DNA of 1,619 bases from Naegleria gruberi (lineage: Eukaryota), in the NCBI GenBank assembly GCA_000004985.1, contig GG739369.1; one strand, given 5' to 3'. Positions 1 through 1,045 of this stretch are shown piece by piece. Below the pieces are notes generated by a model, which saw only the letters and a list, made by a program, of their open reading frames with translations, was not told the DNA's origin and did not search any database. The position numbers were made by a program, and so were the translations under genes. Numbering within the stretch: position 1 is the stretch's first letter; each line of letters opens with the position of its first letter.

Positions 1-120
1 GTGGAAGGAGTTAAAACAATGACTCGTTGCTCGCTACCTGCAGAAGGTGAGCTAAGGTCTTTCGTTTTCTTGTTGTTCTTTGGTGTAGTTGGTGTTGGGG
101 CCATTGTGATAATTTTTTGA
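1..120 (+). CDS. Possible 3' end of a protein-coding gene entering from upstream (frame 1 is open from position 1 to TGA at 118-120). The C-terminal residues ...GELRSFVFLLFFGVVGVGAIVIIF* form a ~20-aa hydrophobic tail ending at the stop, as in tail-anchored membrane proteins.
   Basis: Frame 1 is stop-free for 39 codons; the other two + frames stop at 19-21 and 10-12. The region is GC-richer than the AT-rich sequence that follows. Third codon positions are T-rich (GTT, GGT, TTC, TTG, CGT, ACT, CCT, TCT), as in AT-rich yeast coding DNA. The hydrophobic stretch runs to the stop codon and is followed by an AT-rich UTR-like sequence. Caveat: the fragment is only 39 codons, and the minus strand (104 down to 1) is also open. 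Confidence 0.4.
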   Translation: MEGVKTMTRCSLPAEGELRSFVFLLFFGVVGVGAIVIIF

Positions 121-239
121 GCATGGAAAAATACTCAACTTATATTTTATTAAGTTTACAATGAAAACAAGTCCATTCTTCACTTCGCTCAGAATTAGAC
201 ATCATTTGACTACTTTCAGCTTTTATTGTTAAAAACATA

Positions 240-245
240 AATAAA
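240..245 (+). promoter_or_regulatory. Candidate polyadenylation positioning element AATAAA, ~120 nt downstream of the stop at 118-120, preceded by a TATATTTTA efficiency-element-like stretch at 161-169.
   Basis: An AATAAA hexamer lies at 240-245 in an AT-rich 3' flank. Yeast-type 3'-end signals are degenerate and AT-rich, so this is only suggestive. Confidence 0.2.
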
Positions 246-740
246 TTTCCGGTGTTTATTACAACTAGGTAAAACTGAAACGGTACTACTAAGTTTAAGG
301 CAGATATTTGTCCACTTTTCCCTGACTATTTTACAACAGTGATTTTATGATGATTAAGGGAGATTAGAAACATTACCTTTCCCACTTCACCATTACGGCC
401 ACTAATTCGGCAACATATTAACATCAAAAAATTGATGTATGTACTCTTACCTCTTGCCTTGATGACCATCTTCTCCGTCCTTACCACTCAAATCAACTGT
501 TATGCTGTTTTTCAGCATTTTTTTTCGAATGTTCTGCACTTTGAAATTTACATAACCCAAATCAAGCATATTTAGCACCAACAAGAGCTGGCACAATGGT
601 TTCTTTGTGGATGATAATAAAATAAGTCAAAATTCTAAAAGTTCCTAAATTGAACATGAATGTTTTCTTTTAAATTGGTCTTATTAAGGGTAGTAACTTC
701 CCATTTTGAGCAAAGTATGAACTTTAACTATTACATCCTG

Positions 741-833
741 CACAACGTTGATCACTATGAACATGCTTGACTCAATTATTTTCACAATGGCTTAGCTGTG
801 ATCAACGTTGTGAGTCAAGCATGTTCATAGTGA
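741..833. repeat. Composite interleaved inverted repeat. Arm A 741-755 (cacaacgttgatcac) is the exact reverse complement of 798-812 (gtgatcaacgttgtg). Arm B 752-774 (tcactatgaacatgcttgactca) is the exact reverse complement of 811-833 (tgagtcaagcatgttcatagtga).
   Basis: I read this directly from the sequence: 15/15 and 23/23 perfect complementarity. The order is A-B-spacer-A'-B' rather than A-B-spacer-B'-A', so the two pairings cross (pseudoknot topology, or two mutually exclusive hairpins). A 23-bp perfect inverted match within 100 bp is vastly beyond chance for this composition. Confidence 0.85.
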
Positions 834-909
834 AGAACAAACCAAAATCTTGATTAAAATATATTCCTTACAATCCTAACTGTTGCTTAAAGATTTATGA
901 CTCAGAACT

Positions 910-920
910 TAAATAAATGA
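910..920 (+). promoter_or_regulatory. A/T-rich TATA-like element (ttaaataaatg) immediately upstream of the 5S start; possible upstream Pol III promoter element.
   Basis: Some fungi (fission yeast, Neurospora) use an upstream TATA element in addition to the internal control region for 5S and tRNA transcription. Here the AT-rich block is at about -13 to -3, closer than the canonical -30, so the assignment is weak. Confidence 0.2.
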
Positions 921-922
921 AT

Positions 923-1040
923 GGCTACGGCCATATCACGATGAATGTATCTCATCACGTCCGATTTGAGAAGTTAAGCATCGTCGAGCCACATCAGTAC
1001 TGAGGTTGGAGACAACTTGGGAACCTGTGGTGCTGTAGTC
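923..1040 (+). rRNA. 5S ribosomal RNA gene (eukaryotic nuclear type, ~118 nt), transcribed by RNA polymerase III.
   Basis: GGCTACGGCCATATCACG...CGTCCGAT...AAGTTAAGC...GAGCC...AGTACTGAGGTTGGAGACAACTTGGGAACCTGTGGTGCTGTAGTC aligns along its length with eukaryotic 5S rRNAs (compare GCCTACGGCCATACC...CCCGTCCGATC...GAAGCTAAGC...AGTACT...GGGAGACC...TGGGAA...GGTGCTGTAGGC). Helix I closes: 5' GGCUAC pairs with 3' GUAGUC, with one G-U wobble. Helix II (15-21 CACGAUG with 57-64 CAUCGUCG, one bulge) and helix V (67-71 with 104-108) keep pairing through compensatory changes relative to vertebrate 5S. That argues for a functional gene rather than a decayed pseudocopy. Confidence 0.9.
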
Positions 1041-1045
1041 TTTTT
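1041..1045 (+). terminator. RNA polymerase III terminator (T5 run) abutting the 3' end of the 5S gene.
   Basis: TTTTT lies directly after ...GCTGTAGTC. A run of 4 or more T on the coding strand is the canonical Pol III termination signal. Confidence 0.7.

Follow-up and report, generated by a model that had tools for sequence, protein, structure and literature searches.

A crossing inverted repeat at positions 741–833 of the 1,619-nt stretch of DNA analysed here (the window) is best read as the footprint of a single short-range inter-strand template switch, made during replication or repair synthesis and of the four-point type 3-1-4-2. We give this reading a probability of roughly 0.7. The segment is most simply an instance of an already known mutation type and not a new functional element. 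Moreover, the mutation is most likely recent, presumably neutral and without a role in expression of the 5S rRNA gene that lies downstream. The main value of the case is as a worked example, in which an apparently 'impossible' crossing repeat that invites exotic readings reduces to one known mutational step. The single-switch reading predicts a specific 61-nt ancestral allele. If it is true, the case would stand out for its length and cleanness among events of the rarest template-switch type observed, and would come from outside animals and fungi.

Geometry of the crossing repeat

The structure consists of two pairs of arms, and all coordinates refer to the plus strand unless stated otherwise. 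Arm A (P, 741–755; CACAACGTTGATCAC) is the perfect reverse complement of A′ (P′, 798–812) over 15 bp. Arm B (S′, 752–774; TCACTATGAACATGCTTGACTCA) is the perfect reverse complement of B′ (S, 811–833) over 23 bp, and a spacer (Q′, 775–797) lies between B and A′. The arms thus run in the order A-B-spacer-A′-B′ and the two pairs cross. Neighbouring arms share their terminal bases, namely TCAC (752–755; 4 nt), common to A and B, and TG (811–812; 2 nt), common to A′ and B′. A sequence-only reading of the window had described these same arms and their interleaved arrangement, and had placed the repeat ~90 bp upstream of a 5S gene. All of this is confirmed, the 5S gene starting 89 nt downstream of the end of B′. 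A repeat search could extend B:B′ to 747–774/811–838 (28 nt, 93%); however, this extension is weak, as only 3/5 of the extra positions match (AGAAC at 834–838 against GTTGA at 747–751).

The window is AT-rich, with a G+C content of ~29–39%. Across 200 dinucleotide-preserving shuffles (loop ≤120 nt), the longest perfect inverted repeat measured 7–12 nt. The observed 23 and 15 nt lie far above this maximum of 12 nt and therefore the repeats are not the product of chance. No further copies of A, B or the spacer were found in the 1619-nt window at ≤4 mismatches. The two repeats contain 0 differences at 38 compared sites, and the per-copy divergence since the event is below ~0.039 (95% bound). With no differences in either, neither repeat looks the older and both appear equally young. 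Moreover, the longest perfect short-range inverted repeats in 82 kb of fetched loci, ~75 kb of which came from related protists, were 12–15 nt and mostly low-complexity A/T runs; perfect repeats of at least 16 nt that are not of low complexity were absent from these loci. Therefore, the repeat in the window appears to be a one-off and not a habit of the genome.

The second half of the structure had also been described as a near circular permutation of the reverse complement of the first 34 nt. As a description this is exact, 798–833 being a substring of the tandem dimer of rc(743–774). As an account of origin it fails, because in the best model only 752–812 is new and A (741–755) and B′ (811–833) are original flanks; the second copy is then not a permuted copy of the first segment.

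A proposed single template switch and the implied ancestor

In the four-point model, a mutated copy is made up of the sequence L→1, the complement of 2→3 and then the sequence from 4 onwards (Löytynoja & Goldman 2017, Genome Res, PMC5453318). Overlap of 2→3 with either L→1 or 4→ creates an inverted repeat, and in type 3-1-4-2 the 2→3 fragment overlaps both, giving two inverted repeats (PMC5453318). The output of this type is P | S′ Q′ P′ | S, in which P:P′ and S′:S are necessarily interleaved and abut at the switch junctions. In the window both junctions abut exactly. When a second 15-nt inverted copy was placed at random within ±100 nt, such double abutment, with source end and copy end falling within 0–4 nt of the boundaries of the first repeat, arose by chance in only ~5e-4 of 2 million trials. 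By our own arithmetic, the chance of a 4-nt junction overlap is ~1/256.

The implied ancestor was built as window 1–755 + rc(775–797) + 811–1619. On grounds of parsimony we infer both this ancestor and the inversion of the spacer. It holds a 61-nt allele P-Q-S, with P = CACAACGTTGATCAC, Q = AGCTAAGCCATTGTGAAAATAAT and S = TGAGTCAAGCATGTTCATAGTGA, flanked by ...ACATCCTG on one side and AGAACAAACC... on the other. Applying R[..p1]+rc(R[p3..p2])+R[p4..] to this ancestor gives back the full 1619-nt window without a single mismatch, with the caveat that the 3-1-4-2 model would formally accommodate every crossing pair of repeats that abut. There are 15 equivalent placements (5 x 3) of the switch points, owing to the microhomologies TCAC/GTGA (4 nt) and TG/CA (2 nt) at the junctions, and every one of them is ordered 3<1<4<2. 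At the sequence level, then, the decomposition, the switch order, the presence of two inverted repeats and the tract length all agree with type 3-1-4-2. The neighbourhood in the ancestor contains no inverted repeat >7 nt, the folding energy of the equivalent ancestral stretch, 74 nt where the window has 106 nt, is only −11 kcal/mol and the net gain in length over the ancestor is 32 nt.

Under this model, the nascent strand would have copied through the end of P (fragment F1) and left its template within 751–755, across which switch point 1 can be placed anywhere owing to the TCAC microhomology. It would then have used the 4-nt microhomology TCAC/GTGA to re-anneal with the opposite strand, at the distal end of S, and copied backward through S, Q and P to give S′ Q′ P′. 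The putative newly made tract (F2, 752–812) is the reverse complement of the predicted ancestral P-Q-S and measures 55–61 nt, depending on how the microhomology is assigned. After dissociating a second time, the strand would have used the 2-nt TG to resume on its first template, where S begins (fragment F3). The predicted product, P-S′-Q′-P′-S, corresponds to A-B-spacer-A′-B′, that is, two perfect crossing repeats around an inverted spacer, with 775–797 being the inverted form of the ancestral spacer AGCTAAGCCATTGTGAAAATAAT. Because switch point 2 is located downstream of point 1, the nascent strand cannot have served as template and the switch would have been inter-strand. We infer that it took place in vivo, in the course of replication. 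The ancestor also contains a quasi-palindrome with matches at 7 of 9 positions, in which GTTGATCAC is compared with GTTCTTCAC, the reverse complement of GTGAAGAAC; it comprises TCAC/GTGA and the 3/5-matching extension (834–838 against 747–751). This quasi-palindrome may have nucleated the first switch.

Neither an orthologous locus nor the ancestral sequence was found among the loci and collections searched, and the predicted ancestral P|Q junction gave 0 matches in viral contigs. Exact scans of metagenome, viral and prokaryote contigs with the 23-nt B arm, which occurs in the predicted ancestral sequence as well, likewise returned 0 matches. The sequence-only reading had attributed the perfect arms either to a very recent origin, by template switch or inversion-duplication, or to selection. 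The evidence favours the first of these, and one switch-and-return explains everything; the functional candidates found no support.

Type 3-1-4-2 is rare in primates, at 1% of events (PMC5453318), and in great apes the copied tract has a median length of 12 nt and reaches at most 128 nt (PMC7954356). The 55–61 nt copied here fall inside the great-ape range and are long compared with the median. The form of the output is identical to that of the primate type, with interleaved repeats, an inverted spacer, a required inter-strand copy and a gain in length. However, the present case comes from a protist and not a primate, was identified without an outgroup and with an inferred ancestor, and combines a tract of 55–61 nt, against the primate median of 12, with arms (15 and 23 bp) that are unusually long and clean. 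Several other processes are comparable. In quasi-palindrome correction (the Ripley model of bacteria and yeast), a short imperfect inverted repeat likewise lets the nascent strand jump to a complementary template, which makes perfect inverted repeats and can invert a spacer. That process perfects an existing near-palindrome, whereas here the ancestor offered only the 7-of-9 quasi-palindrome and a homology of 2 nt, and the product gained 32 nt of new sequence. Template-switch-born miRNA hairpins and RNA stems (Mönttinen et al., PMC8794818; 10.1101/2023.04.19.537475) are alike in that a single event yields a perfect stem (23 bp in this case) with the size of a miRNA precursor; the present stem differs in lying in intergenic sequence next to a Pol III gene and in being known from DNA alone. 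MMBIR/FoSTeS and ODIRA-type inverted triplications also arise from serial switches at 2–5-nt microhomologies and give inverted copies, but on a scale of kilobases to megabases and with X-X′-X structures, whereas the event here is confined to 93 nt and leaves a single Q. Lastly, MITE and foldback transposons share the short element, the long terminal inverted repeats and the capacity to form a hairpin. They differ from the window, where no target-site duplication was seen, in having no other copies in the collections searched and in the crossing second repeat, which such elements do not predict.

Alternative origins

The same structure could have arisen in at least two separate events, for example an inverted duplication that produced B:B′ and a later hairpin-nucleated switch that produced A:A′, or a tandem duplication followed by inversion of the spacer. 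In favour of such a history, the single-repeat switch types 1-4-3-2 and 3-2-1-4 are ~30 times commoner in primates than 3-1-4-2 (31% vs 1%; PMC5453318), and an existing hairpin may stall forks and invite a second switch. However, the abutment of the junctions would then be a coincidence of the order found for random placements, both repeats are perfect with neither appearing older, and the tandem-duplication routes need three steps when worked through. A multi-step origin is possible but unparsimonious, and taking both variants together we consider it unlikely. An event in vitro would leave the same footprint as one in the cell, whether a polymerase switched template during amplification (for instance a phi29 MDA chimera from a single-cell genome) or library preparation or PCR, or the locus was misassembled. 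The absence of the source genome from a collection of ~15 billion proteins would fit a recent or unusual assembly, and single-cell genomes of uncultivated Naegleria exist (PMC12482156). Against this, nothing ties the window to an amplified library, and individual chimeric molecules are normally outvoted in consensus assemblies. MDA chimeras typically have inverted junctions with short microhomology, but the points they join usually lie at a greater distance, without a neat return to the original template within ~60 nt. We therefore regard an artefact as improbable.

A third origin is the insertion upstream of the 5S gene of a miniature foldback or MITE-like transposon with terminal inverted repeats of 23–28 bp (B/B′). 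An element of 82–92 bp with long perfect terminal repeats (B/B′, 23 bp) and an AT-rich loop has the appropriate form, and cmscan returned weak hairpin-like matches to plant MIR precursor families (E 0.1–0.7). These matches score only 19–23 bits, far under the gathering scores of 90–144. Moreover, no target-site duplication of 2–10 bp flanks any inverted-repeat boundary; a search for direct flanks of this size across boundaries 738–759/826–844 recovered only self-complementary TA/AT inside the stem. A second copy was found neither in the window nor in the collections searched, and BLASTN of window 700–880 against plasmids and phages gave no match. A transposon would also leave both A:A′ and the abutment of A and B unexplained. 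The earlier suggestion of a mobile-element remnant or terminus pair thus finds no footing in the form of a target-site duplication or another copy, and we hold this origin to be very unlikely.

Several further routes were considered and rejected. Tandem duplication of a 32-nt unit plus inversion between A/A′ or B/B′ takes three steps by each route, and at least three steps are needed both for rolling-circle copying of a 32-nt circle and for two successive 3-2-1-4 switches with a 32-nt slip. Hairpin-end (P-nucleotide) footprints of transposon excision are far too short. An ODIRA-type triplication does not fit because the spacer is present only once.

Folding, possible function and the neighbourhood of the 5S gene

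The chief physical consequence of the proposed switch would be a new and very stable 23-bp B:B′ hairpin, and the case illustrates how a perfect hairpin of this length may arise in intergenic DNA in one step. Both the MFE and the centroid structure, as RNA of either strand and as DNA, are this plain hairpin with a 36-nt loop. The energies are −46.1 (z = −8.4) and −46.3 (z = −7.5) kcal/mol for the two RNA strands and −27.6 kcal/mol for DNA. Neither strand pairs A with A′ in its MFE or its centroid structure. When forced, the A:A′ state reaches −29.8 against −46.1 kcal/mol as RNA (a gap of 16.3) and −18.8 against −27.6 kcal/mol as DNA (a gap of 8.8). The sequence-only reading had noted that the two stems cannot form as nested helices. 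Folding of both strands, which it had proposed, returned the very stable B:B′ hairpin and not the A:A′ helix. A two-state switch in RNA or DNA is rejected because the folds are not comparable in energy, A:A′ being disfavoured by the 16.3 (RNA) and 8.8 (DNA) kcal/mol given above. An H-type pseudoknot needs connecting loops that are long enough to span the helix grooves. Here the arms overlap by 4 nt (A/B) and 2 nt (A′/B′), leaving zero linker nucleotides beside helices of 15 and 23 bp. Taken with the established geometry, this overlap makes it sterically impossible for both helices to form together, and the pseudoknot proposed earlier is discarded.

The repeat might nonetheless be a selected element. 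At the RNA level it could act as a structured ncRNA or as a hairpin precursor of small RNAs, and at the DNA level as a platform that binds a dimeric factor or as a boundary associated with Pol III. The stability of the hairpin (−46.1 kcal/mol, z = −8.4) is in keeping with this, as is the near-palindromic heptamer TGACTCA/TGAGTCA that the arms carry and that recurs at 898, just upstream of the 5S gene. Template switches are also known to seed new hairpin genes (10.1101/2023.04.19.537475) and, according to an abstract, promoter repeats (PMC13100816). However, no Rfam family reaches threshold, and the matches to the miRNA precursors MIR9408/MIR2630 (23.4, 22.9 and 18.9 bits) remain below the gathering thresholds of 90 and 144. 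In addition, the helices are mutually exclusive with A:A′ disfavoured by 16.3 kcal/mol, the perfect arms give no covariation signal, and nothing similar lies upstream of a related 5S gene (described below). We judge selection for such an element to be highly improbable. AP-1/Gcn4-like heptamers (TGACTCA/TGAGTCA) are found at 768–774 (in B), 811–817 (in B′) and 898–904 (18–24 nt upstream of the 5S gene). Two of these three copies represent one site duplicated by the switch and their excess is therefore not significant; the heptamers in the arms and at 898 are a curiosity and not evidence. There is a slimmer chance still that a hairpin made by the switch has since been put to use, as a small-RNA precursor or as a duplicated site for a TGACTCA-type factor, or that fork stalling underlies its proximity to the 5S gene. 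Heterolobosean amoebae have Dicer/Argonaute machinery, and a co-opted hairpin could be a de novo small-RNA precursor. Similarly, a duplicated TGACTCA-type site, if co-opted, could affect the neighbouring Pol III gene. Yeast tRNA genes are replication-fork pause sites, and it is conceivable that fork stalling at Pol III genes drove template switching 89 nt from the 5S gene.

The 5S rRNA gene itself (923–1041, +; Rfam RF00001, 96.4 bits, E 2.7e-21, full length) is followed by a T5 run. It is context only, outside the template-switch event, and nothing new is learned here about its regulation. A 5S-motif scan returned one useful relative, the metagenome contig L001, and one irrelevant match (L002), and found nothing in prokaryote genomes. 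The 5S gene of L001 (539–657, −) matches window 904–1044 at 93% identity. A gene for an ABHD11-like hydrolase (823–1908, +) is oriented divergently to it and starts 165 nt away. The encoded protein is closest to those of Willaertia magna (52%) and Naegleria lovaniensis (58%); the source of L001 is a related protist, probably a heterolobosean, and the window itself can tentatively be assigned to a heterolobosean-like amoeba. Similarity between L001 and the window reaches no further than 19 nt upstream of the 5S gene, and L001 contains no inverted repeat of at least 12 nt. Therefore, by comparison with this one related locus, the crossing repeat is not a conserved 5S-upstream element, and the Pol III platform or boundary element suggested by the sequence-only reading is absent from the position where a counterpart would be expected. 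The 19 nt upstream of the gene are partly shared (window 904–922, AGAAcTTAAATAAATGAAT; L001 658–676, AGAATTAACATAAGTAGAT), which suggests a short conserved upstream promoter element. The motif AAATAAAT also occurs at 239 and 1195 of the window. Four ABHD11 loci (L005–L008, from W. magna, N. lovaniensis and two Naegleria-like contigs) contain no 5S gene and have no similarity to the window. With orthologous hydrolase loci lacking a 5S gene, 5S genes appear to be dispersed, mobile or non-syntenic in this group. The literature on 5S genes and transposons of Naegleria yielded nothing relevant.

Downstream of the 5S gene, an A9 run precedes an open frame (1260–1619, +) of 120 codons that stays open to the end of the window. 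A word-based protein search found no homologue of it, whereas a full HMMER scan of 1.84 billion cluster representatives gave three matches at 29–38% identity and no relative above 38%. The two best relatives come from one ENA metagenome and show 36–38% identity, with 24 invariant columns. Neither the frame nor these two relatives contain a Pfam domain, no homologue was detected in annotated Naegleria or Willaertia proteomes, and the contigs of the two relatives (L003 and L004) lack both a 5S gene and synteny. The frame is a real but orphan-like gene, with these two proteins as its only credible relatives.

A stretch at 438–514 (+), GTATGT...TTTTTCAG, resembles a short spliceosomal intron by eye, with no flanking exon supported. 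Within the spacer of the repeat, the motif CACAATGG(C/T)TT...TGTG at 783–800 recurs directly at 592–609 (78% identity) and 778–791 recurs inverted at 100–113 (14 nt, 93%); at such lengths both matches are probably due to chance. At the left end of the window (1–120, +), frame +1 runs open from base 1 until the stop at 118–120 and closes with the hydrophobic tail ...RSFVFLLFFGVVGVGAIVIIF. This resembles the 3′ end of a gene that runs into the window from the left and specifies a tail-anchored or GPI-signal protein.
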